DNA of 64,000 bases from the sequence record OZ346187.1; one strand, 5' to 3'. The translations under genes were made by a program, and so were the position numbers. The notes under the pieces were generated by a model. That model did not search any database. It worked only from the letters and a program-made list of their open reading frames with translations, and was not told the DNA's origin. This DNA is from a phage. This document shows, in pieces, positions 1,129 through 56,756 of this stretch (position 1 is its first letter; each line of letters starts with the position of its first letter).

Positions 1129-1155
1129 GCCCTGCCCGAAAGGGTGGGGCTTTTT
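1129..1155 (+). terminator. rho-independent terminator hairpin GCCCTGCCC-GAAA-GGGTGGGGC followed by TTTTT (copy 1 of 2)
   Basis: GC stem, GAAA tetraloop, T-run; near-identical copy at 12508-12535. Confidence 0.6.
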
Positions 1156-1173
1156 GCATTAGGAGACAGCAAA

Positions 1174-1938
1174 TTGAAATTCATCTACAAAGAACACTAC
1201 CACAAAGGTGTTGTGTGGAGTCTATTTGACGGGTCTGGTGGTGCAGTTATTGACTGGGCAAAAGCTGGGTACCTGTGCCTGTGCTTTAATGCAGAAGGTG
1301 CTGACCACGGCAGTTATGCAGAGGTGATAACCGATCATCCTAACATTCACTATGTGGATTATTGGATTGACCCATGGTTCCCTCAGGAAACTTTTTGCAT
1401 GTATCCAGCTCCAGACTTTATTCTTGCATTTCCTCCGTGCACGCATTTAGCGGTATCAGGTGCTGCACATTTTAAGAAAAAGCTGGCTAAGGATCCTTTG
1501 ATCCAAATTAATGCTGTAAAGGATGCTCGGGTTGCGGAAGAGTTGGGAGAGATTTACGATTGCCCGTGGCATGTAGAGAATCCTGTAGGGGTTATGTCCA
1601 CACTGTGGCGAAAACCTGATTACCGTTTTCATCCTTCGGATTATGGTGGGTATTTACCGGAGGATGATGTAAACCCCTGGTTTCCTGAATTTATAGCTCC
1701 ACGTGATGCCTACCCAAAAATAACTTGCGGCTGGATAGGCAATGGATTTATAATCCCGGCCACAAAACCTGTCCCGCAAATAGTTGACGCGGTTAGCGGG
1801 TATTCCATGCAACACGCCAAGCTGGGTGGAAAGAGTGCAAGAACGAAGATGATCCGAAGCCTCACGCCACGTGGCTGGGCAAAAGCCGTATTCTTAGCAA
1901 ACGAGCCTGTAGTAAGGAGCAGAATTAATGGGAAGTAA
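1174..1938 (+). CDS. divergent C5-cytosine methyltransferase-like protein
   Basis: Motifs in canonical order: FDGSGG (motif I FxGxGG), FPPCTHLAVSG (motif IV PC-), WHVENPVG (motif VI ENV); probable TTG start after AGGAGA RBS (ORF-track start 1144 lies inside the terminator hairpin). Confidence 0.45.
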   Translation: MKFIYKEHYHKGVVWSLFDGSGGAVIDWAKAGYLCLCFNAEGADHGSYAEVITDHPNIHYVDYWIDPWFPQETFCMYPAPDFILAFPPCTHLAVSGAAHFKKKLAKDPLIQINAVKDARVAEELGEIYDCPWHVENPVGVMSTLWRKPDYRFHPSDYGGYLPEDDVNPWFPEFIAPRDAYPKITCGWIGNGFIIPATKPVPQIVDAVSGYSMQHAKLGGKSARTKMIRSLTPRGWAKAVFLANEPVVRSRINGK

Positions 1939-4006
1939 ATTTATGGCATCTGCATACAACCGTTTCGGTGAGCCAAACCCGAAAGCAATTAAGTATAAAA
2001 GTGGGGGAAGTGTGAAACGAGACTATCGTGATGAAAAAGAGGTTGAAACTGTAGAGACTGTTTTAGAAAATACTAAAATCGTCCCTGTCCCACAACAAAA
2101 TATCGGTCTGATGGCTGCACAATATTTTGGTGTGCGATCAGCATTGTCCCAAGAAGACGGTGTGACAGTCACTGCAACATATTTCCCATATTACGACCGA
2201 TACGGAAATCTGTCCGGTTTCAAAAAGCGTGACTGGACTATTCCTAAAGAACAAAGGGGCCACTTCTCCGTTGTTGGCATAGTAAAGGCCAACTCCCAGA
2301 TGTTTGGTCAAAAGCTGTGTGCATCTTCCAACAACCGTAAGCAGATTAACGTTTGTGAGGGAGAAGGTGATGTTATTGCAGCATGGCAGGCTGCATATCA
2401 GATACAAGTAAAAGGGATTCTCACCAACGCTAAAGCCCCGGCAAAGGTGAAGCAGTGGGCTAAAGAGGTCCAGGACGGGATCGACGCAGTTATCAACGGT
2501 GGTGATCTGGCAGGAAAACCCTGCCTGCCTTTTGTTGGAATTAACTGTGGATGTGCAAACGCAGTAGATACTTTTGCAAACAATGAGAAGTTTATCCGTA
2601 GCTATGGAACAGTTGTGCTGGCAATGGATAACGATGCAGCTAACGAGGTAGAGAAGCAAAAACACGTCATTAAAGGTGTTGAGGCCACGCACAATATCGC
2701 AGCATTTTTGATGGCTGATAACGTTTACCACGTAGAATACCCTGGTGAAGTAAATGACCCTGACGGGGTAAAAGATATCCGTGACATGCTGAAGGCTAAA
2801 AAGCTGGAAGATATTGTCAACATGTTCCGGCACCCTGTTAAATATGTGCCTGATGCTGTGTCGGATTTAGAAGACTTCTCTATCGAGTCTTTGCGGAAAA
2901 AGACTTCCAACGGGGTAGATATCAGCGCAGAGTTCCCAAAACTGCAAAAAATGCTAAAAGGCTTGCACAAAGGGACACTCGTAATGCTTACAGGGCCATC
3001 AGGGGGCGGTAAAACAACTGTAGCTAAAAAACTGGAACATTGTATTGCAAGATACCTAATGGACCCGACATGCCCGAAGGCTGATGACTATGAAGAGGAT
3101 GATCGTCTATGTATGATCCATCTTGAGGAGGACCCAGAGGAAGCAATTAACTCCTTGTATGCAAACCAGTTAGGGTTTGATGTTAAAGAGTTTGTTGAAG
3201 ATCCTAGCCAGTTTTTAACTGATCAAGAACACGCAGAGATTCACCAATCATGGGCAAAAGCTGGAAAAATCAAAGTGTTCAAACATTTCGGATCTATTCC
3301 GGTGGACGAGTTGATTACCAAGCTTAAGCAAATGGTTTGCCTGTACCATTGCCGTTATATTGTGCTGGATCACCTATCCATGGTAATTTCAGGGCTTAAT
3401 GTTAAGGATGAGCGAAAAGAACTGGACATGGCTATGACTCAGCTGGCTGCGTTTTGTAAGCAGTTTAACGTGTTTATCTTGGTGATCGCTCACCTCAAAC
3501 GTACAGAGATTGTGCCTCCTAAGGACAAGGATGGTAACCCGTTACCTTTCTGGTATCCTGTGCGAAAAGAGAATTTGCGAGGATCGGCGGGGCTTGAACA
3601 GTTGAGTTGGGTAGTCATAGGTGTCGAGGCCGAAGAAATGGTGGATCGTTCTCGTGGACGTGTCCGTCTGGTAGGTCTTAAAAACCGTCCAGCAAAAACT
3701 CTAGGTATTGCTGACACTTTGGTTATGGACCCGCACACAGGTAAGTTCCATGATGCCAGTAATTGGTACTGGGACAAAGAAATGCAAATGTTTACAGACG
3801 GAGAAGGTGGGGAGGTTGTTTGGAGACCTCAGGCTATGTTTGAGGATCAGGAGCATGCAGTTGTAGAAACACCTATGGGCAAGGTTGTGGCTGATAAGGT
3901 TGTAACTCCTACTGTTAAGCCTGTTGACACGCAGGAAGACCTCCAGTACGATGATCCATCCTCTGACCCGGTCCCTGGTTTTGAGGATGATGAAACGCCT
4001 TTTTAA
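1928..4006 (+). CDS. DNA primase-helicase (TOPRIM + DnaB-like helicase)
   Basis: TOPRIM-like NVCEGEGD; Walker A LTGPSGGGKTT; DnaB-like CRYIVLDHLSM; acidic C-terminal tail ending DDETPF. Confidence 0.8.
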   Translation: MGSKFMASAYNRFGEPNPKAIKYKSGGSVKRDYRDEKEVETVETVLENTKIVPVPQQNIGLMAAQYFGVRSALSQEDGVTVTATYFPYYDRYGNLSGFKKRDWTIPKEQRGHFSVVGIVKANSQMFGQKLCASSNNRKQINVCEGEGDVIAAWQAAYQIQVKGILTNAKAPAKVKQWAKEVQDGIDAVINGGDLAGKPCLPFVGINCGCANAVDTFANNEKFIRSYGTVVLAMDNDAANEVEKQKHVIKGVEATHNIAAFLMADNVYHVEYPGEVNDPDGVKDIRDMLKAKKLEDIVNMFRHPVKYVPDAVSDLEDFSIESLRKKTSNGVDISAEFPKLQKMLKGLHKGTLVMLTGPSGGGKTTVAKKLEHCIARYLMDPTCPKADDYEEDDRLCMIHLEEDPEEAINSLYANQLGFDVKEFVEDPSQFLTDQEHAEIHQSWAKAGKIKVFKHFGSIPVDELITKLKQMVCLYHCRYIVLDHLSMVISGLNVKDERKELDMAMTQLAAFCKQFNVFILVIAHLKRTEIVPPKDKDGNPLPFWYPVRKENLRGSAGLEQLSWVVIGVEAEEMVDRSRGRVRLVGLKNRPAKTLGIADTLVMDPHTGKFHDASNWYWDKEMQMFTDGEGGEVVWRPQAMFEDQEHAVVETPMGKVVADKVVTPTVKPVDTQEDLQYDDPSSDPVPGFEDDETPF

Positions 4007-4068: not shown

Positions 4069-7000
4069 ATGAGTATGTGGAATTTTGACTTTGAGGCCTC
4101 AGGTCTTCTGGACGAGGAAGATCTTTACTACCATTGTGGCCTGTTTAAAGAGTTGAATAAAAATAATTTTATGTTGTTTTTGCCTATCAATGATAGATCT
4201 CATTACAGTGAAGAGGAGGTTGAAAAAGCAAAACAATTTATGCTGGCAAAGCAAGATATCTATCCTAGCTGCTCTGTCCGTATTGCGGATTTCAGCCAGC
4301 TTGAATGGTGGTTAACCGGGAACTCCGATTGGTCACCCACATCATTAAGTTGTCACAACTGTTTTAGTTATGACTTTATCTTGATGGAGAAGCTGTCTGG
4401 TATTCATTTTGATATGTTCCGTGATCCCAAGTGTATGGGGACAATCAATAATCATCAGGTGAACCTGTTCGACACTCTGCCAATGAGTCGTATACTATGG
4501 CCCGACAGACCGTTACCTAAAGGATGCCCTGATTCTGTATACAATCCTGTTACAAAACGTATGCAGCAGGTAGGTCCTCATGGCCTAATGGCGTGGGGGT
4601 ACGCTTTAGGAAACCAGAAGGTTAAAATTGATGACTGGAGAAATTTACCTCTGTGGAAGTATGTTGATCGTGTATTCGAGGACGTTATCATCCAGGAGCT
4701 GCTCTGGAAAGAGCTGGTAGCGGAATCAAAAGGTGTATTCTACGGCAAATCTGACATGCAGAACTTTATGTACGATCCAGCCAAAGAGAAGCCGAAAGGG
4801 TTCAAGAAGATTACCTGGAAGAATGCATTACGCCGAGGCATGCTGCAGCACTTCCTGATGGAGCTGCAGGCCCGTCAGGGTGTATACTTCGACATAGATG
4901 GAGCTATTGCTTTACGTGACCGTTGCGATGCGTGGATGAAAGAAATCGCTGATCGTGTTGAACCACAACTACCTTTAAAAGAGCTGTCAATGTCTCAGCG
5001 GCCCAAGTTCCCTGAAAAGCCGTTTAACCAAGACGGGACAATCTCTAATAATGGTTGGAAATGGTTAAAAGATAAGCTTGGCTATCCTGTAGACATGAGT
5101 GCTTTAGAGTTCAAAGCCCCGCCTAAGCGAGCATTTACCTCTACAGGAGATGTCAGCAAGATGGGGATAAAATGGTGTGAAGAGATGGGCTGCAAAGACC
5201 CCGATAAGATGGCTGATTTCTTGAGAGGCTATATTAAGGGCACCTCCACACCACAACCCTTACCTAAAGAGCTGATGGATCAGGCAATAAGTGATCTGCA
5301 GCAGAAGCGAATGCCTGACTGCAAGATACCTATGAAAATCAGCAATCAGGACGACATCAAGCGATACCTAATCAGTGCTGGTTGGCTCCCAACAATGTGG
5401 AGAACTAAAGATGTAACTAAAGACAGCAAGAAGAAAGCTTTACCTGATGCAGATGTTGATGCACGAGTATATGCATATATGGACGAGCTTTTGGAGTCAG
5501 AGTATTGTGACCTAATTATCAACTTCTGGAACAAAACTGATGCTAAGTTCCAGACAACCGTGCACAAGTTCCGAAGCTTTCCTAACTCCGAAAGGATTAA
5601 AAAGGAAGTATTCGGGAAAATACGTAGAAAAGCCAGGGCACTTATTACTTCTCCGCAACTGAAAGATACGTTTGGACACCTATGCCCAAATCTTGAAAAA
5701 TTGAACGGAGAGATGGCTAAAGATATCGTCTTGTGGTTATCATTGCGAAACCGCAGATCGGTCCTTGATCCAATCAAGGAGGATAAGGTTGATACTGGTC
5801 TTCTTAATCACCCACGTTTGAAGATTGACCATAAGCTTCCTGCTAAAAGCTCTGGATTAACAAACACTTCCAGACAGAAACACAGTATTTGTGCAAACAT
5901 GCCTAAACCATCTCCTAAAGTGGTTATGGGTAAAGAGATGCGTAGTCTGTGGGGTGTTCCTCCGGGATACTTTGAGATCGGTATTGACGGGTCCAACTTA
6001 GAGCAGCTTATCGGGGCTTGGGGTGCCTTTGAGTTCGACAACGGCCTGTATTATGATGTTGTAAGTAATGGCGATGCACACTGTTATTCAGGAGATACAC
6101 AAATTCTCACGGAGAAAGGGTGGGTGAGGTTTGAAGATCTTGATCCGGGAACACAAGTGTTCCAGTACGATCACAACACCTCGTCAATGAACCTTGTTAC
6201 TCCATTAAATTACGTTAAGCGTAGTTATTGTGGGGATATGTATCATTTCCACAACAGTAGTGTGGATTTTATGGTTACAGATCAACACAGGATGCTGACT
6301 GTGGATCACAGAAGCAATAAATTGTTTGAAGATTTGGCAAAAGACCTGAAAGCAGGTAAAGGGTCTAATTCAGGAAGAAGGTTTATCCATGCGGCAGAGT
6401 TTTATGGGAATACAACCTTATCTCCTGCCCAGGTTAATTTGCTTATTGCTATTCACGATGATGGGCACTTGCATACAAATAAGGACGGCAGCATCGTGTG
6501 CAGGATTCAGGTCGGAAAGGGAAGAAAAGTTGCAACGCTTTTAGATACTTTTTCTGCTCTAAGCCTTAGTTATGTAGAGCAGAGCGGGAAAACCACAAAA
6601 GGGGGCTTACTGGCGAGAAGGTTCCAATTCCACGTTCCGTCCTGGGTATTTGAGTTTTTGGACAACAATAAGGATTTCACCTATAACCTGATGAACCTTG
6701 ATAAAGAATCTAAAAACCTGTTTATAGCTTCTTTATCTAACTGGGACGGGTGGGTATCTTCCGAAGGTGGAAAGGTTGCTTACTACTCCCAGGCCGAGTG
6801 CAGGAAGAAATCTGTAGAGGTGGTGTCTGCGCTGGCTACTCAGTGTGGTTTACGGAATAATACGGTGGCGATTCACAAAAAAGGTCGTGCCGTGCAGCAC
6901 AGAATCACAATTGGTAGCAAACAGAGAGCAGGGTTGCTGACACTATCTAAAGAGTCTGTCGAGGTGAGCGGTTCTTTGGTTTATTGCGTTACCGTCCCTT

Positions 7001-7401
7001 CTGGAGCAATCATTGTGAGAAGGAATGGTAAAGTGGCAGTGTGCGGTAACTGTAATAACGCCAAAGCTTACTCTTCTGTAGCAGGCAAGGAGATTTCCCG
7101 TAACGATGGTAAACCTATCACGTATGGGGTTATGTATGGGGCACAAAAAGATAAAGTTGCAGATATGCTGGACATCTCCCCAGAGTTGGGACAAAGGGTA
7201 ATCGATGCACTCTGGGATGCCAACCCAGGTCTTAAGGGGCGCAAAGAGGATCTGGAGAAATTCTGGGAAGCAACAGGTAAGAAGTTTATCTACTCTTTTG
7301 ATGGTCATGCTATCTGGACCCGATCTAAACACTCTTTACTTAATGCATACCAACAAAATGGCGGTGCATCGTTGTGTGACTTAGTTGGAATACTCATGCA
7401 C
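4069..7401 (+). CDS. DNA polymerase, family A, exon 1 (contains an in-frame intein; ORF reads through to a stop at 7467 inside the intron)
   Basis: 3'-5' exo motifs FDFEASGL (Exo I) and CHNCFSYDF (Exo II); motif B-like RNDGKPITYGVMYGAQ; ORF ends ...GILMH just before the expected HDE of motif C. Confidence 0.85.
6082..7050 (+). mobile_element. intein with LAGLIDADG homing-endonuclease domain inside DNA polymerase
   Basis: Starts CYSGDTQILTEKG (intein block A), TDQHRML (block B TxxH), LAGLIDADG-like LLIAIHDDGH and LFIASLSNWDGW, ends ...VAVCGN followed by Cys (+1). Confidence 0.65.
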
Positions 7402-7737
7402 CACCAGATGGTGAAGCGTGGGTGGTACGATGAAGGTGTTCGTCGTATTATTTATTACCATAAATAACATTGTGGCTTCATAGAGTAATCTATGTCGAAT
7501 AACCTCTTTAACTGCGGGAAGCCTAAACCTTATGGCAAGGTAATCCGCAACGAAGCGCTCAAAAGAGCGAACGCTCAGAGGCCATTCCGAAAGGAAGTAG
7601 ACCAGCAAGTGCGGTCGAAATGGGAGGATTCCTGTGGTTGCTTATCATAGGAATATGAGATGGTCCGATCCTACGTGAAAACGTATGGCTATGCACGTAA
7701 TGGTGCGGGGTAGCTTAACGACCTACCTGAACTATTG
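7402..7737 (+). mobile_element. group I intron without ORF, interrupting DNA polymerase at motif C (boundaries approximate)
   Basis: P-like AACTGCGGGAAG, Q-like AATCCGCAAC, R-like CTCAGAGGCCA, S-like AGATGGTCCGATCC; joining exons gives ...ILMH-DEYQLQV. Confidence 0.6.
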
Positions 7738-41525: not shown

Positions 41526-42509
41526 TTAACCTTTCACGAAGTGGTTATTAAGCAGTTGTCTGTGCTGAACCCACCCACAAAAGTTGGCAGACCAGAATTT
41601 ACCATCACGATCTTGATGGGTTACACCTTCCTGCCAAGTACTGATGTCTTGTGTGATTTCACATGAAGACAGGTAGTAGTTTAAACGTTCCATTGCGTTA
41701 TCGTGATCCATAGGTGTCGCCTGGTGCTCGTAAGGGCTTGCATGAATACGATCCCCACCAATCAATTTTTTAGCCACACTGTCTGCCTTTTCAAACGTGC
41801 TGTCAATATTTCGATAAGATACTTGTGCACAGCAACTAGCACTGATAGACAGAGCTTCTTTAGTATCGAGAATGCAAAGCTTTCCTTCTGTGTCACGTAC
41901 AGCGTAGTTAAACTCTCCGTCCAAATAAACGTGCTCTACATATGGGGTGTGCCATTGACCCGGTTTAAGGATTTCAGGAGTGCTATTCCCAAGAGCCTCC
42001 CACATACAATTAGCCAACATCTGAATCGTAGGATCCGCATCGTGCCAGCAACGGAGGTGGAAAAAATTATTCCACTCGGTGCTTGTTACAACTGTTTTCA
42101 TGCGCTGGAATGGCTCCACTAAGCGGTTACATACTTGCTTATGGTAACCAGCAAGGGCGAACTTCTCTGCATGCCAAGCGGCGTTTTTTGCAGCTTCTTT
42201 CCAAAACTCTTCAGGAGTTAGCTCCATGTCAGTGTACTCTACACGGATCTTTTGATCGTGTTCCCCACCATCTTCCATTCCTCGCTTATTTACACCGAAG
42301 CGAACTGGCATTGCCGGATTCTCCACAATCTGTTGCAGCATCTTGCCGACAGGTACTGCACGGGAAGACATGGCGTTTCGGCTGAACACTCGGTGCGTCA
42401 TAAGCTCTGAGTGAATAATTCGAGGATACTCTAGTTCAAAAGTGGTGATACGCTTACCTTTCTCGGAAATGCTGTCAGCAATAATCTTTGCAGTGCACAG
42501 TTTTAGCAT
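41526..42509 (-). CDS. thyX: flavin-dependent thymidylate synthase
   Basis: ThyX-like signature THRVFSRNAMSSRA (RHR-x7-S-type motif). Confidence 0.6.
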   Translation of the reverse strand: MLKLCTAKIIADSISEKGKRITTFELEYPRIIHSELMTHRVFSRNAMSSRAVPVGKMLQQIVENPAMPVRFGVNKRGMEDGGEHDQKIRVEYTDMELTPEEFWKEAAKNAAWHAEKFALAGYHKQVCNRLVEPFQRMKTVVTSTEWNNFFHLRCWHDADPTIQMLANCMWEALGNSTPEILKPGQWHTPYVEHVYLDGEFNYAVRDTEGKLCILDTKEALSISASCCAQVSYRNIDSTFEKADSVAKKLIGGDRIHASPYEHQATPMDHDNAMERLNYYLSSCEITQDISTWQEGVTHQDRDGKFWSANFCGWVQHRQLLNNHFVKG

Positions 42510-42709
42510 TATTTAGCTCTCCTTGTTTTAATTTTGGAAATTTCGTCTGGGTTTATGTTGGCCTTAAATGCAAGGTATCTGTTGAACATGTCAGAGCACA
42601 TATCTTGGGTGATCCTAGAGGCATACACTAGCTTACCTCCTAGATCATACACCTCTAGCCAGTCACCGTATCTGACTACAGGATCGCCACCTTTAGAACA
42701 TCTGCCCAT
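42509..42709 (-). CDS. hypothetical protein
   Basis: ORF-track ORF. Confidence 0.4.
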   Translation of the reverse strand: MGRCSKGGDPVVRYGDWLEVYDLGGKLVYASRITQDMCSDMFNRYLAFKANINPDEISKIKTRRAK

Positions 42710-42710
42710 T

Positions 42711-43304
42711 TCAAATACCTTCTAAAAATTTTCCTATTTTATACCAGCTATTAGCGGTATAGTCAACACTGACCTTTAACTCCTCGAATTGCTCATAAGG
42801 CGTATCTTTTAGGATTTTAATAACTTCAGGTCGTGAAGCGAATTGGTTCAGGTATTCATGCCTGTCGTCAATTATAACATCTACAGCCACATTCCCTTTG
42901 AAATGTGTGGCGTAGAAGCCGTGGCCCTGGGTGTGATCGTCCAGATCCATAAAATCACTGGTCCAACGCTTTAAGAACCTTGATTTAGATGCAAGGTGAC
43001 CTTTCTTGCATACCGAGATAAATGCAAGCTTGTGACCACGAGCCACCAAATCTTTCATAACCTCAATAGCCCCCTCTTCAGGCTTAAGGAAGTCGTAGAG
43101 GAACGGATCACTCCAGAAATCAAAAGGTCCTATGATGTTTTCTTTGGGACGATCAGGCCAATACTTTGACAGATCGTAGTACATTAGCCCATTAGAAGGT
43201 TTAGCTACTGTCTTACTGGCTGGACCATACAAACGCTCCAACCACTCCCACCATGCTGTTCCTGAATCTACCAGTGTCAGATCTACATCAATTCCGATTA
43301 ACAT
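42711..43304 (-). CDS. HAD-family phosphatase, likely 5'-deoxynucleotidase
   Basis: HAD motif I IGIDVDLTL (DxDxT). Confidence 0.5.
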   Translation of the reverse strand: MLIGIDVDLTLVDSGTAWWEWLERLYGPASKTVAKPSNGLMYYDLSKYWPDRPKENIIGPFDFWSDPFLYDFLKPEEGAIEVMKDLVARGHKLAFISVCKKGHLASKSRFLKRWTSDFMDLDDHTQGHGFYATHFKGNVAVDVIIDDRHEYLNQFASRPEVIKILKDTPYEQFEELKVSVDYTANSWYKIGKFLEGI

Positions 43305-44130: not shown

Positions 44131-44589
44131 TTAGAAGTTTGTTTTTACACGTCCCTTCTCATCAACCTCGTTGTTAGCTAAAAGCGTTACAAAGTCTGTG
44201 AAACGAACATGAAGAACCCTTTTCTTATCAAGGTATCCTAAAGCCACCCCTGAGAAATTTAGCATCAAAGGGGCTAAAGAAGCTCTGGCACTGAAATGCT
44301 GTTGTTCTACCCTTCCAACACCCTTAGTGTAGGATGGGTTAAGATTGTAAGTTCTGAATCCCAGTTTTGTTGGAGCTTTAGAATTAAAAACGACTTTATA
44401 GCGTTTCTTACTCAACTTATGCTCCAGGATAAGCATTCCCTTATCACCTTTGATAAGTTGAAAATCTGTAAAGTGCTCTTTTAAGACGAAAGGTAGTGCC
44501 AGTCCCATCGCCTGTCCTCTTTGTACCGCTGTCTCACCAAAAGCTTTTGCATCAGTAAGTTCTTTGGTCAAGTCTATGCTTTTGATCAT
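44131..44589 (-). CDS. hypothetical protein
   Basis: ORF-track ORF. Confidence 0.45.
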   Translation of the reverse strand: MIKSIDLTKELTDAKAFGETAVQRGQAMGLALPFVLKEHFTDFQLIKGDKGMLILEHKLSKKRYKVVFNSKAPTKLGFRTYNLNPSYTKGVGRVEQQHFSARASLAPLMLNFSGVALGYLDKKRVLHVRFTDFVTLLANNEVDEKGRVKTNF

Positions 44590-45400
44590 ACCTGGTCTCC
44601 AAAATGTATTGTAGTTCTTTCTTACCTATACTCTTCATTCCAGCAGTCTTACCTGCTTCTTCTTGAAAAGAAGAATAGCATTCAGCAAACACTCTGTCAA
44701 CACCGTTAACTAAAGATTTTATGAAATATGTTGATTCTTCAGATTTTGGGTCATCATCCCCCAATACTTTTCCAGCATTATACCCAACACGTCTTACACA
44801 GAAGTCGTAGTCATCTGGTGTGCTAAAAGAAAATAACTTATTCTCTCCAATCTCTACAGGATCCCTATTGCACGCCTTTTTCTCCCAAATTTGGAAAACA
44901 CATGGCACGTCATAAGGTTTGCCATTAAGTAAAAACGAATTCTTAGGGCACCTTTCGCTGTAGACAAGGTGCATCGACATGTCCAGTTTGTTTGCAAAAA
45001 ATATTTTTTCAAATGTCCGTGGCAAGATGAAGGCTATAGCCCCTCCAAGCTCTAGCAATGATGCACAATGGTTAAAGAATTTGCAAGCTAAGGATGAATT
45101 CTTGCCAAATGGTGGGTTACCTATGAAGACATCTGCCTTGGGATGCACCTCCAAGAAGTTTGCCTGAATGCACGGTGTTGGTCCTTCAAATTCAGGATCT
45201 GGTACTAAATCGTACGACAGTATCTCTGAAAATAGTTTTGAAAAAGAACCCCTTCCAGCAGAAGGCTCAACGTATGCACAATTCCCATACTTATCTTTTA
45301 CTTTACCAACAAGATATTCTGCATACTCAGGGTTTGTGTAGTATTTGTCGTTGGACTCTTTCTTGCTCAAAGTGCCTCCAAAAGGAAAAGGGAGGCGCAA
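44552..45400 (-). CDS. DNA N6-adenine methyltransferase (start codon uncertain)
   Basis: AdoMet motif VEPSAGRGSF and catalytic motif IGNPPFG (NPPF). Confidence 0.65.
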   Translation of the reverse strand: MRLPFPFGGTLSKKESNDKYYTNPEYAEYLVGKVKDKYGNCAYVEPSAGRGSFSKLFSEILSYDLVPDPEFEGPTPCIQANFLEVHPKADVFIGNPPFGKNSSLACKFFNHCASLLELGGAIAFILPRTFEKIFFANKLDMSMHLVYSERCPKNSFLLNGKPYDVPCVFQIWEKKACNRDPVEIGENKLFSFSTPDDYDFCVRRVGYNAGKVLGDDDPKSEESTYFIKSLVNGVDRVFAECYSSFQEEAGKTAGMKSIGKKELQYILETRYDQKHRLDQRTY

Positions 45401-45415: not shown

Positions 45416-46399
45416 TTAGATTATCTGAATCAGGGTATTTTTCATTTCTTCTCTGGTGCGGATGTTGTTACGGTCACGAACAACAGATCCACAACCTTCG
45501 CAGCGGTATGTTTTAAATGCACTCAGTTGAGTATACGCCAAAGCTTCTTCCTCGTGAAGGTGTTCTCCACCACAGCGTGGGCAACGAACTTTTGGCTCCT
45601 CATCCTGGTAGTACAATGACATGTTGGGGTGCTGCTTAGCAAACGGGCGAGCCAGCAAATACAGGCCTTCCAGAGATAGGATATCGCCAACATTGTACTC
45701 CCGCATCTGTTTAAACGCCTCAAGATCACCGTGAACACACTTGATCCACATTTCAAATGTGTGGTCAATCAGTTTCTGTCGGGCAAGTTGGAAGTATTTG
45801 CATGCATACTCCAAAGTGTTTGCATTCAAACGGAATGCCTTCTTGATCATTTTAAGGGTGTCAACCTCTTTGTAGGGGCTTGTTGGAGGCAATCCGTGAA
45901 ATGCAAATCGTTGGTTGGCCCACCCACAGTCAAAACCTGAATTGTGGGCTACTGCGACATCACATTTATCCAGATAATACCACAAATCCTGAATCAATTC
46001 GAGATCATTGTGAATATCCTCATCCCACATTTTGTAATCAGGAAGAGCGCAGTCAACCACACTAGGACTGTCTAACCACTTACCTGCGAAAGTTAGCATG
46101 TAGGGCATAATTTCAATACCGCAGGTTTGAATGTTGGTCTTATAGTGCCCAAAGAACCAGCCGTTTGTTGGAGATGTCTCTGTATCATACACCCAAACTT
46201 TAGCACCTTTGTGCTCTTCAAGGAAGCGCTCCGTTGCTTCTCCTACAATCTCTGACATATTCTCTTGTGCACGTTTAAGCTGTAGTCGGATCCAGCTCTC
46301 ACGTGACTCACGGCCTAAAAATTCACGAGCAATTTGTCTATTAGTGTATCCCTGTTGCTTTAGTGTTAAAATTTGCTCAAGAGTTAACTTTGTCATCAT
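45416..46399 (-). CDS. DEDD-family 3'-5' exonuclease (DnaQ-like) with N-terminal HTH-like region
   Basis: Exo I VWVYDTETS, Exo II VAHNSGFD, Exo III YNVGDI. Confidence 0.6.
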   Translation of the reverse strand: MMTKLTLEQILTLKQQGYTNRQIAREFLGRESRESWIRLQLKRAQENMSEIVGEATERFLEEHKGAKVWVYDTETSPTNGWFFGHYKTNIQTCGIEIMPYMLTFAGKWLDSPSVVDCALPDYKMWDEDIHNDLELIQDLWYYLDKCDVAVAHNSGFDCGWANQRFAFHGLPPTSPYKEVDTLKMIKKAFRLNANTLEYACKYFQLARQKLIDHTFEMWIKCVHGDLEAFKQMREYNVGDILSLEGLYLLARPFAKQHPNMSLYYQDEEPKVRCPRCGGEHLHEEEALAYTQLSAFKTYRCEGCGSVVRDRNNIRTREEMKNTLIQII

Positions 46400-54703: not shown

Positions 54704-55465
54704 TTAAAGTTCCATAAAGTTTTCTACAGTTTCAATAAATGCTTTATCAGAGAAAGCGTCAACAGCACCGTTAAACCATACAGGGATCCCGCGATCCTCA
54801 TATTGATAAAGGTCGCTACGTGAAATGCCACTTCCATCTGCACTCTGCGAGTCATACTTGTTTACAATCAGCAGTTTTGTGCCTTTACAAGTAGCAGGAA
54901 ACAATTCCCAGTTAAAATTAATAACTGTGTTAGAACAACCTACTAGGATCACCATATCATTGCTTGTGAGAGATGTCAACAGGTCATACATGTCTGTATA
55001 CTTAGGAGCAACCTCACCGAAGAACACTACATTGGGCTTAACCCAGGTATACTTGCCTGTATCTACCTCCGTGTATCCGATATTTTTAATTACATCATTA
55101 CCTTCAGCATCTTCGTAGGTGATTTCAGGCAAATACCCGTGGACATGTAAAATATCTTCATGTTTTACACCAGCACGCTCCAGCAAATCATCTACATTGG
55201 TGGTAAGGTTGATCACACGACCAGACCAGCGGGAATACCACTCAGCGATCCGAAGATGTGCAAGGTTAGGATCAACACTGCCCAGAGCTACACGACGTGC
55301 ATTGTAAAAGTCATGCACCTTATAGTAATTCTTGGCAAAGGTGTGAATGTTGCACACCTCATCGATGCTGAAATTCTCCCACATTGCAGTGCTACCAGAT
55401 CGGAAAGTGGGAATACCAGATTCAGCGCTCAAACCAGCACCGGAGATAATAATCAGTCGTCGCAT
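54704..55465 (-). CDS. Sir2-family NAD-dependent protein (sirtuin-like)
   Basis: GAGLSAESGIPTFR matches the sirtuin NAD-binding motif; HG and VVFFGE downstream; no CxxC zinc module seen. Confidence 0.7.
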   Translation of the reverse strand: MRRLIIISGAGLSAESGIPTFRSGSTAMWENFSIDEVCNIHTFAKNYYKVHDFYNARRVALGSVDPNLAHLRIAEWYSRWSGRVINLTTNVDDLLERAGVKHEDILHVHGYLPEITYEDAEGNDVIKNIGYTEVDTGKYTWVKPNVVFFGEVAPKYTDMYDLLTSLTSNDMVILVGCSNTVINFNWELFPATCKGTKLLIVNKYDSQSADGSGISRSDLYQYEDRGIPVWFNGAVDAFSDKAFIETVENFMEL

Positions 55466-55473
55466 AAGTGTCC

Positions 55474-55824
55474 TCAGTAGATGTTTTGTTTAATCTCTAT
55501 TCCAAACTTCTTGAATGAGTCAGCAGCAAGCATAAATTTACGAGCTGCCGATGGATTAGAAGTATGCACGAAAATAATCACGTTGTCAATAAGTGGTGGC
55601 TTTCCGAATACAAGTTTCTCCTCTAGCGCAGAGAAGCAGTCGTACCCTTCAAGCACTTCACCTAGATCATTGTCAAAATACCACTCAGATACGCGTCTGT
55701 AGAGCTTTCTCTTATCATTAAGAAAATCCATAAACTCAGAAGAATTCTTTAGCCACAGAGCGTCTGGGAGTCCATAATCTGACGGATCTCTAAAATCATC
55801 AAGCCACACAATCCACTTCTTCAT
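55474..55824 (-). CDS. hypothetical protein
   Basis: ORF-track ORF. Confidence 0.45.
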   Translation of the reverse strand: MKKWIVWLDDFRDPSDYGLPDALWLKNSSEFMDFLNDKRKLYRRVSEWYFDNDLGEVLEGYDCFSALEEKLVFGKPPLIDNVIIFVHTSNPSAARKFMLAADSFKKFGIEIKQNIY

Positions 55825-56756
55825 TGCATATAGTCCTCGTTGTGGAAATAGTAGTCCAGTATCTCACGACGCTCCTGCTCTAATAAGCAATTCCACACAT
55901 CTTCTGTATAGTTGCTACGAATAAATTTTACCATACCGTAAAACTCTTCGTCAACACGTTTAAAGATATCATCATCCCAAATCTTCCAAGCTTTACCCCT
56001 CATTACTGCCTTCTGTGCCAGATAGTATGGAGACTTGATCTTCAGCTGCAGATCATAAGGGTAGTAAGGCTTACGAATCATATACCCTTCACCTCTTGTT
56101 TCTGCAGCTAATTCTTTTGCATAGCTGAACGGAATTTCACGCACAGTGTTAGGACGTTTTGCACCAAGGTATTTGGCAATCCCATCTAAAGCTGCTTCTG
56201 GTAGCATTATTCCAGAATCATTATATCTGCAACCTATCAAATATGCGCCATGGTCTTCTTGAACAATATGCGGATCTGAAGGGTGACAAATTTCAAACAT
56301 GAATGTCATGTTTTCATTGCCCATAACCTTCTTGATAAGATCTAAATTACCACATTGCTCTTGGATGGTTTCCTTTGCAAGGTTACAATATGGAGAATCA
56401 AGAGACCCGGTTGTTGAGAACAATAGGTCACCTTTATGAGATGATACCACACCAAGGAATCCGTTCTTTTTCTCTACCGCAGTCACAAGCTTATTGTCAG
56501 GCAGGTTGGTGGAGTTTTCTCCCAAGTTAAACACTTTTGTGAAGGGCCATGCCACAACATTTCCTTCATTACCTACAACAATGCCTCGGCACTCCAGTAA
56601 ACGAGGGGACAAATGCCATAAATTGTTGTAAAATACTTTTCTAGCATATTTATAGATCTTTAACCCGAGATCTGGGTAATACCTACTGGTTGCAAGACCT
56701 TTGTCAACTAGGTCGTCTGCATTAAAATACTTCATTATATGTTCCTCATTTGTCAT
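55821..56756 (-). CDS. putative RNA ligase (nucleotidyltransferase KxNG)
   Basis: VEKKNGFLG fits the ligase lysine motif K-x-(D/N)-G; a DNA ligase is encoded separately. Confidence 0.5.
   Translation of the reverse strand: MTNEEHIMKYFNADDLVDKGLATSRYYPDLGLKIYKYARKVFYNNLWHLSPRLLECRGIVVGNEGNVVAWPFTKVFNLGENSTNLPDNKLVTAVEKKNGFLGVVSSHKGDLLFSTTGSLDSPYCNLAKETIQEQCGNLDLIKKVMGNENMTFMFEICHPSDPHIVQEDHGAYLIGCRYNDSGIMLPEAALDGIAKYLGAKRPNTVREIPFSYAKELAAETRGEGYMIRKPYYPYDLQLKIKSPYYLAQKAVMRGKAWKIWDDDIFKRVDEEFYGMVKFIRSNYTEDVWNCLLEQERREILDYYFHNEDYMQ

Follow-up and report, generated by a model that had tools for sequence, protein, structure and literature searches.

Judged from its sequence, the window (the whole 64,000-nucleotide stretch of the phage record OZ346187.1 that was analysed) is that of an rV5-like Vequintavirus; its first 12 kb are 95–99% identical to the rV5-like E. 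coli Vequintaviruses 241Ecol014PP, Mangalyan, MaxTheCat and AlexBoehm. The coding sequence under study (1174–1938, + strand) extends from a TTG at 1174 to a stop codon at 1938 and yields 254 amino acids plus stop upon translation, in line with the short protein of about 255 residues noted in the preliminary description. According to homology, profile match and structural model it is assigned as a Dcm-like orphan C5-cytosine DNA methyltransferase of the family PHROG 757. It is the single long plus-strand ORF at this place, with an in-frame open extent of 1144–1938 (+). A ribosome binding site AGGAGA (1161–1166, +), read directly from the sequence, is located about 8 nt upstream of the TTG start, and the annotation of MaxTheCat uses the same start (CDS 64475..65239). 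The sole longer alternative, a GTG at 1144, is situated inside a terminator-like hairpin without a ribosome binding site and is disfavoured against TTG 1174.

The hairpin in question is G+C-rich (1127–1152, +; 11 pairs, 7 of them G-C, with a loop of 4) and is followed by a T run, the tail being TTTGCATTAG. It follows the stop codon of the upstream ORF (1120–1122) and thus is part of the leader of the methyltransferase gene. Within the end of the upstream ORF a sigma-70-like consensus match, TTGACA-17-TACAAT (11/12; 1078–1106, +), was found, which we treat as a putative promoter, as 4.2 kb contained 8 sites of this kind where 6.1 were expected. The hairpin starts within about 20 nt downstream of this match, so transcripts from the promoter would start just ahead of the hairpin. 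It could serve as terminator of the upstream gene, as a 5' stabiliser or as an attenuator of the methyltransferase/replication operon.

Downstream, a DnaB-type primase/helicase gene follows (1928–4006, +; DnaB_C E = 1.9e-13), whose ATG overlaps the final 11 nt of the methyltransferase gene, and a DNA polymerase gene comes next. Because of this overlap and the adjoining polymerase gene, the methyltransferase gene belongs to the replication module, and the 11-nt overlap indicates that methyltransferase and primase/helicase are probably co-transcribed and translationally coupled. Its neighbours altogether are hypothetical proteins, the primase/helicase and the DNA polymerase; in the annotation of MaxTheCat no restriction endonuclease partner adjoins the methyltransferase gene. 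The family-A polymerase gene itself (4069–7467, +, and on to ~8100) is interrupted: its 1132-aa ORF carries an intein-like insertion from CYSGDTQILT to near VAVCGN/C with LAGLIDADG-like segments between, and shows a weak Hint_2 Pfam match at aa 672–706 (E = 8.8e-4, under the curated cut-off). The stop at 7467 precedes the end of the polymerase, the MaxTheCat CDS is joined from two pieces, megablast coverage versus MaxTheCat falls to 92% in two pieces at this gene, and an HNH endonuclease is annotated in the corresponding stretch of other relatives.

Further away, the 64 kb of MaxTheCat equivalent to the window are annotated with two putative N6-adenine methyltransferases, nucleotide reductases and a thymidylate synthase, whereas CmoA, ligase and TET-like genes are missing from this annotation. 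The thymidylate synthase of the window (327 aa; within the region 41526–43304, −) is of the ThyX type (PF02511, E = 3.6e-9, covering aa 23–178 only) and adjoins a 5'-deoxynucleotidase gene (NT5C, E = 4.4e-6), with no sign of a hydroxymethylase pathway seen. A link of the methyltransferase to a pyrimidine hypermodification pathway was rejected in view of this ordinary ThyX and of the lack of annotated CmoA, ligase or TET-like genes in MaxTheCat. A 282-aa ORF (44552–45400, −), which adjoins a DnaQ-like exonuclease gene (45416–46399), is syntenic with a 'putative N6 adenine methyltransferase' of MaxTheCat (118493–119311) and gave no Pfam match at E ≤ 0.001. Furthermore, a Sir2 gene and a T4-type RNA ligase gene adjoin each other (54704–55465, −, and 55821–56756, −; PF02146, E = 6.9e-28, and PF09511, E = 1e-14, respectively); the phage-encoded Sir2 is of possible interest for counter-defence or NAD+ metabolism.

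Comparison with known proteins unveiled a match of the 254-aa protein to the 'DNA methyltransferase' profile PHROG 757 with E = 7.7e-87 and 291.5 bits, residues 2–251 being aligned to profile positions 5–226 of 247. It is 99.2–99.6% identical to proteins of rV5, FFH2, LL12 and BASEL phages, and these near-identical proteins are labelled hypothetical protein, DNA methyltransferase or 'Dcm-like C5 cytosine methyltransferase', the last being the annotation of the BASEL Vequintavirus proteins with 99.6% identity. An identical sequence is present in the protein collection within a cluster of 332 members. Relatives of the family occur in 1,504 phage records, including Drexlerviridae, Dhillonvirus, Krischvirus-type T4-like and Klebsiella Webervirus-type phages as well as Salmonella, Vibrio, Pectobacterium and Pseudomonas phages, and an exhaustive profile search returned 2,039 representative clusters at E ≤ 0.001. 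The gene is thus already annotated in close relatives and its family characterised experimentally, which makes the finding essentially ordinary. Pfam and NCBIfam scans of the 254-aa protein gave nothing relevant (no PF00145 even at E ≤ 10), and phmmer against the PDB gave chance-level matches only. Among 26 aligned relatives 19 matched PF00145 at E ≤ 10, three of them above the 22-bit gathering score, with matches covering only profile positions 4–94 of 324, i.e. motifs I–IV. Some relatives of the mini-methyltransferase are fused to much larger proteins, one of which is annotated Helicase/UvrB N-terminal; BFVD A0A6J5SE15 (1397 aa) and the representatives P0247, P0256 and P0269 (401–453 aa) belong here. 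These fusions echo the tight linkage of methyltransferase and helicase/primase genes observed here, in Dhillonvirus and in other phages.

The preliminary description had pointed to FDGSGG, PPCTHLAVSG and HVENPVG, which follow one another as motifs I, IV and VI do in C5-cytosine methyltransferases, and translation confirms them at aa 18–23 (1225–1242, +), 87–96 (1432–1461, +) and 133–139 (1570–1590, +). FDGSGG would form the SAM-binding loop after beta-1, PPCTHLAVSG carries the putative nucleophile Cys89 followed by Thr90 where PCQ has its Gln, as had been recognised from the outset, and HVENPVG, on strand beta-5, contains ENP instead of ENV with Glu135. Coincidental motif matches, named beforehand as a possible refutation, were ruled out: a search for F.G.G ... 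PC ... EN[VPI] in this order gave a single hit in the six-frame ORF stretches of the window (n = 122 stretches of at least 100 aa, 22,303 aa in total), and none of the 200 residue-shuffled controls contained it. Motif VIII (QxRxR) and motif X (GN) cannot be made out in the 254-aa protein. In the place of motif VIII stands YPKITCGW (1711–1734, +) with K182-x-T184-xx-W187 on beta-7, as suggested by the strand order, and RSLTPRG ahead of the C-terminal helix (1855–1875, +) probably corresponds to motif X, Arg228 presumably occupying the site of the Asn of GN.

An alignment of 147 diverse family members revealed high conservation of C89 (94%), E135 (97%), N136 (93%), P137 (98%), K182 (93%), T184 (92%), W187 (97%) and Arg228 (94%), with lower values for D66 (71%) and Arg233 (75%). 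The residue after the catalytic Cys is Thr in 130 of the 147 members (88%) and otherwise Asp, Glu or Arg. Motif I reads [FY]-D-x-[ST]-G family-wide, the first Gly of FxGxG being variable. In a profile-to-PDB alignment the family consensus F-P-P-C-T-D-L-A was aligned to G-S-P-C-N-D-L-S of DNMT3B, and the profile alignment to CmoX placed F18, D66 and C89 on Phe25, Asp69 and Cys98, which act as adenine-stacking residue, adenine-binding residue and nucleophile, respectively (PMC12783734).

The AlphaFold2 model of the 254-aa protein (pLDDT 87.9, pTM 0.88) shows a class I methyltransferase fold with C5-methyltransferase topology. Its best structural matches were DNMT3A/B, CmoX, M.HhaI and M.HaeIII, with DNMT1, M.MpeI and DNMT2 ranking lower; Foldseek returned DNMT3A at E = 4e-7, and the best matches in a viral structure library were phage 'DNA-cytosine methylases' of the same family. 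Since the best matches are C5-methyltransferases, a methyltransferase fold is predicted, the absence of which would have spoken against the original assignment. Together with the PHROG 757 match this prediction bears out the description as a divergent C5-methyltransferase-like protein. In the model only about 22 residues connect beta-7 (184–189) to the next helix (212), and from beta-7 to the C-terminal helices there are ~20–40 residues. This short connection leaves almost no target-recognition domain, and the highly conserved 40-residue segment W145 ... K182 between motifs VI and VIII may be a DNA-binding substitute.

With respect to the replaced Gln, the preliminary description had further considered a pyrimidine-modifying enzyme with altered chemistry rather than a canonical Dcm. 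This suggestion found no support: Thr is the family norm at this position, DNMT3B has Asn (PCN) and CmoX has Ser (PCS, within S-P-P-C-S-A-F-S), so that the Gln of PCQ is not a defining residue of C5-methyltransferases and the exchange of Gln for Thr alone is no evidence of a different chemistry. Experimental work on a homologue points the same way. From the KarlJaspers-like Drexlerviridae phage K42, Wang et al. isolated escapers of retron Ec86, all of which disrupt a 711-bp 'Dcm-like C5 cytosine methyltransferase' gene, and expression of K42 Dcm was reported to be toxic only when the retron is present (bioRxiv 10.1101/2023.08.16.553469; peer-reviewed version cited as Cell Rep 2024 43:114857). 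LC-MS in this study shows high 5-methylcytosine (5mC) in the msDNA with wild-type K42 Dcm and low values with the C82A/E128A/K175A/K176A mutant or the empty vector (bioRxiv 10.1101/2023.08.16.553469).

The Dcm of the KarlJaspers phage Bas06 (711 bp, 236 aa) is 54% identical to the 254-aa protein over 235 residues (E = 2e-86). C82, E128 and K175 of K42 Dcm fall on C89, E135 and K182 of the 254-aa protein, and K176 corresponds to Ile183. As K42 Dcm forms 5mC by LC-MS and its Bas06 relative shares the motif PPCT with the protein described here, a PCT-type enzyme of PHROG 757 evidently uses SAM and makes 5mC, which speaks against the altered chemistry. In the BASEL work the Vequintavirinae were described as 'exceptionally susceptible' to restriction-modification, apparently without effective protection, the systems affecting them being of the EcoRI/EcoRV type. 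This sensitivity argues against a genome-wide bulk hypermodification of pyrimidines and fits a sparse, site-specific methylation. The literature searched contained no methylation data for any rV5-like phage or Vequintavirus; the rV5 genome paper makes no mention of methylation, and BME3 and other papers merely repeat annotations. Taken together, we assign the ORF, with a probability of roughly 0.8, as an orphan SAM-dependent DNA cytosine-5 methyltransferase of the compact, phage-specific family PHROG 757, whose members typically comprise 225–255 aa.

One alternative concerns the group that is transferred. E. coli makes carboxy-SAM (Cx-SAM) by CmoA, and the enzyme might transfer a carboxymethyl group from it, instead of or besides methyl, to give 5-carboxymethylcytosine in the manner of CmoX, which we regard as quite unlikely. 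CmoX likewise lacks the Gln (SPPCS) and selects Cx-SAM by Arg350, a residue that stands at the site of the Asn of motif X (GRMV against GNAV/GNSV; PMC12783734). A Lys at the motif-X position (N374K) turns M.MpeI into a carboxymethyltransferase, and M.CviPI is converted likewise by comparable changes at the corresponding residues. In the family studied here Arg228 of IRSLTP, conserved in 94% of the members, lies five residues ahead of the C-terminal helix, which is the expected motif-X site. The spacing to this helix suggests that I-R228-S-L-T-P corresponds to G-N-A/S-V-P-x of M.HaeIII/M.HhaI, G-R-M-V-P-P of CmoX and G-R-S-W-S-V-P of DNMT3A. The K42 study monitored 5mC, and its available text describes no search for other products. 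In the extended form of the proposal, PHROG-757 enzymes would accept host carboxy-SAM via Arg228 and produce 5-carboxymethylcytosine alongside 5mC in coliphage DNA, which we consider improbable to the same extent.

However, the K42 homologue clearly raises 5mC and hence accepts SAM, whereas wild-type CmoX takes Cx-SAM only (PMC12783734). DNMT3A, which genuinely uses SAM, has an Arg at the motif-X site too (GRSW), so that Arg alone is not diagnostic. Moreover, the signature of CmoX is SPPC (PMC12783734) but that of the 254-aa protein is FPPC, and neither CmoA nor a CmoY-like ligase is annotated by the gene or in the equivalent 64 kb of MaxTheCat. The equivalence of R228 and N304 is drawn from spacing and may be off by one or more residues: either Arg228 or Arg233 (94% and 75% conserved) is close to the start of the C-terminal helix, and sequence profiles do not align this region with CmoX. 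When the family profile was aligned by hhalign with CmoX, or with a profile built from the CmoX family, only motifs I–IV were matched, in local as well as global mode, and a PDB search with the family C-terminal consensus peptide gave only chance matches, to glucose-6-phosphate isomerase. Considering the Arg of DNMT3A, the 5mC formed by the K42 enzyme and the absent CmoX hallmarks, carboxymethyl transfer is kept as a reading of low probability. If true, it would bring to hundreds of common enterobacterial phages a modification that has until now been described in a cyanophage, and could explain why retron Ec86 is fired by a phage 'Dcm' but apparently not by the host Dcm.

A different substrate was weighed as well. 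RsmB/NSUN-type RNA m5C methyltransferases carry Ser or Thr after the PC of motif IV, which counts in favour of a protein acting on RNA (e.g. on tRNA, as DNMT2 does) or on single-stranded intermediates of replication instead of methylating duplex phage DNA at defined sites. The near-absence of a target-recognition domain in the 254-aa protein, the coupling of the gene to the primase/helicase and the fusion of some relatives to helicase domains are compatible with such a role, and the substrate demonstrated for K42 Dcm is a hairpin in msDNA, most of which is single-stranded. Nevertheless, the top structural matches are DNA enzymes with DNMT2 ranking lower, the TC of motif VI in RsmB/NSUN enzymes is absent, the protein having ENP instead, and the K42 homologue methylates DNA, namely the msDNA stem, in vivo. 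We therefore consider this substrate very unlikely. An RsmB/NSUN-type RNA methyltransferase as such was rejected, as there is neither the TC motif with its second catalytic Cys nor any structural match of that kind. Very unlikely in our view, too, is a catalytically dead protein whose function would lie in binding to DNA or to a partner, be it as a regulator of the DNMT3L kind or as a decoy that counters a host defence. Canonical motifs VIII and X are not recognisable, K176 of K42 Dcm is replaced by Ile and Pfam misses the protein; but Cys89, Glu135, Asn136, Pro137, Lys182 and Asp66 are retained and conserved in the family, including the active K42-type enzyme, and Ile or Leu at position 183 is common to the whole, otherwise strongly conserved, Vequintavirus clade.

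For the preferred cytosine-5 DNA methyltransferase, homology suggests the following course of reaction. SAM would be held by the motif-I loop, the acidic residue after beta-2 and Asp66. Cys89 of PPC would attack C6 of a flipped-out cytosine, while Glu135 of ENP would hold or protonate N3/N4 of the target base, and the methyl group of SAM would then move to C5, followed by beta-elimination. With its gene at the head of the replication module and overlapping the primase/helicase gene, the enzyme is probably a product of early or mid infection. Replicating phage DNA would be methylated at a short motif and host DNA incidentally. The likely benefit, and most likely the role of the enzyme, would be self-protection against the subset of restriction enzymes that are blocked by methylation; in BASEL, resistance to restriction did not simply go along with the presence of methyltransferase genes in the phages. 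A cost has been demonstrated in relatives, in which the same activity methylates the msDNA of retron Ec86/Eco1 and sets off abortive infection.

The target CCWGG has been assumed from the name 'Dcm-like'. In the K42 study, support for it comes solely from the loss of retron defence on mutating CCTGG in the msDNA stem (bioRxiv 10.1101/2023.08.16.553469). Counts of CCWGG in the window (79 observed versus 78 expected from composition and 134 from a Markov model) and of other short palindromes, taken as a sign of avoidance or tolerance, depend in their outcome on the null model and are uninformative. E. coli K-12 MG1655 is dcm+ and has its own Dcm. The msDNA of Ec86-carrying MG1655 shows low 5mC in the absence of the phage enzyme, and no auto-activation of the retron occurs (bioRxiv 10.1101/2023.08.16.553469). 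Low msDNA 5mC in a dcm+ strain implies that phage and host enzymes may not be equivalent, and CCWGG as the target of the phage enzyme may be wrong or incomplete. Among other short sequences, GTAC is under-represented over the whole length of the window (120 copies, where a Markov model predicts 209 and composition 240), GCGC and CGCG reach 0.36 and 0.22 of the composition expectation, and GATC, with 1.35 of composition, is not avoided. For the related phage Bas51, a 2025 PLoS Biol paper reported its N6-adenine methyltransferase to be a trigger of the retrons Asa1 and Squ1 and measured the adenine methylation at GATC and GTAC.

Formation of 5mC by the family and its role as trigger of retron Ec86/Eco1 are already published, and the gene itself adds little to this. 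It is of modest value as a near-smallest C5-methyltransferase architecture of ~230–250 aa with non-canonical motifs VIII and X, missed by Pfam. Its recognition motif, once known, would help to predict which restriction systems and retrons are evaded or triggered by these phage-therapy candidates.

In comparison with known systems, the protein shares with the canonical PF00145 enzymes M.HhaI, M.HaeIII and E. coli Dcm the fold, the order of motifs I, IV and VI and the catalytic Pro-Cys, whereas those enzymes comprise 320–470 aa with PCQ, ENV, QxRxR, a target-recognition domain of 60–100 residues and the GN of motif X, motifs IX and X having been compared for M.HaeIII, M.HhaI and the CP-933R enzyme; the name 'Dcm-like' reflects no specific similarity to E. 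coli Dcm. The catalytic domains of DNMT3A and DNMT3B, at only 12–14% identity, keep ENV and the RxR of motif VIII, have ~285 aa and act in a tetramer with regulatory domains, so this likeness indicates no evolutionary closeness beyond the superfamily. CmoX of Synechococcus phage S-B43 (PDB 8YF3) is a full-length PF00145 protein (372 aa, E = 5.9e-53) with SPPC, ENV, a normal target-recognition domain and a gene adjoining those of CmoA and the ligase CmoY, none of which applies to the 254-aa protein. The K42/Bas06 Dcm belongs to another phage family and another gene neighbourhood, whereas the gene described here overlaps the primase/helicase gene within a replication module, and its product is longer (254 versus 236 aa) by ~10 residues at each terminus. 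The K42 enzyme is the one for which activity and retron triggering have been shown, and the activity of the 254-aa protein is predicted from homology. PPCT, ENPV, K-x-T-x-x-W and RSLTPRG are common to the 254-aa protein and the K42/Bas06 Dcm, and the BASEL genomes annotate the K42/Bas06 enzyme and the Vequintavirus relatives of the 254-aa protein alike as Dcm-like C5 cytosine methyltransferases.
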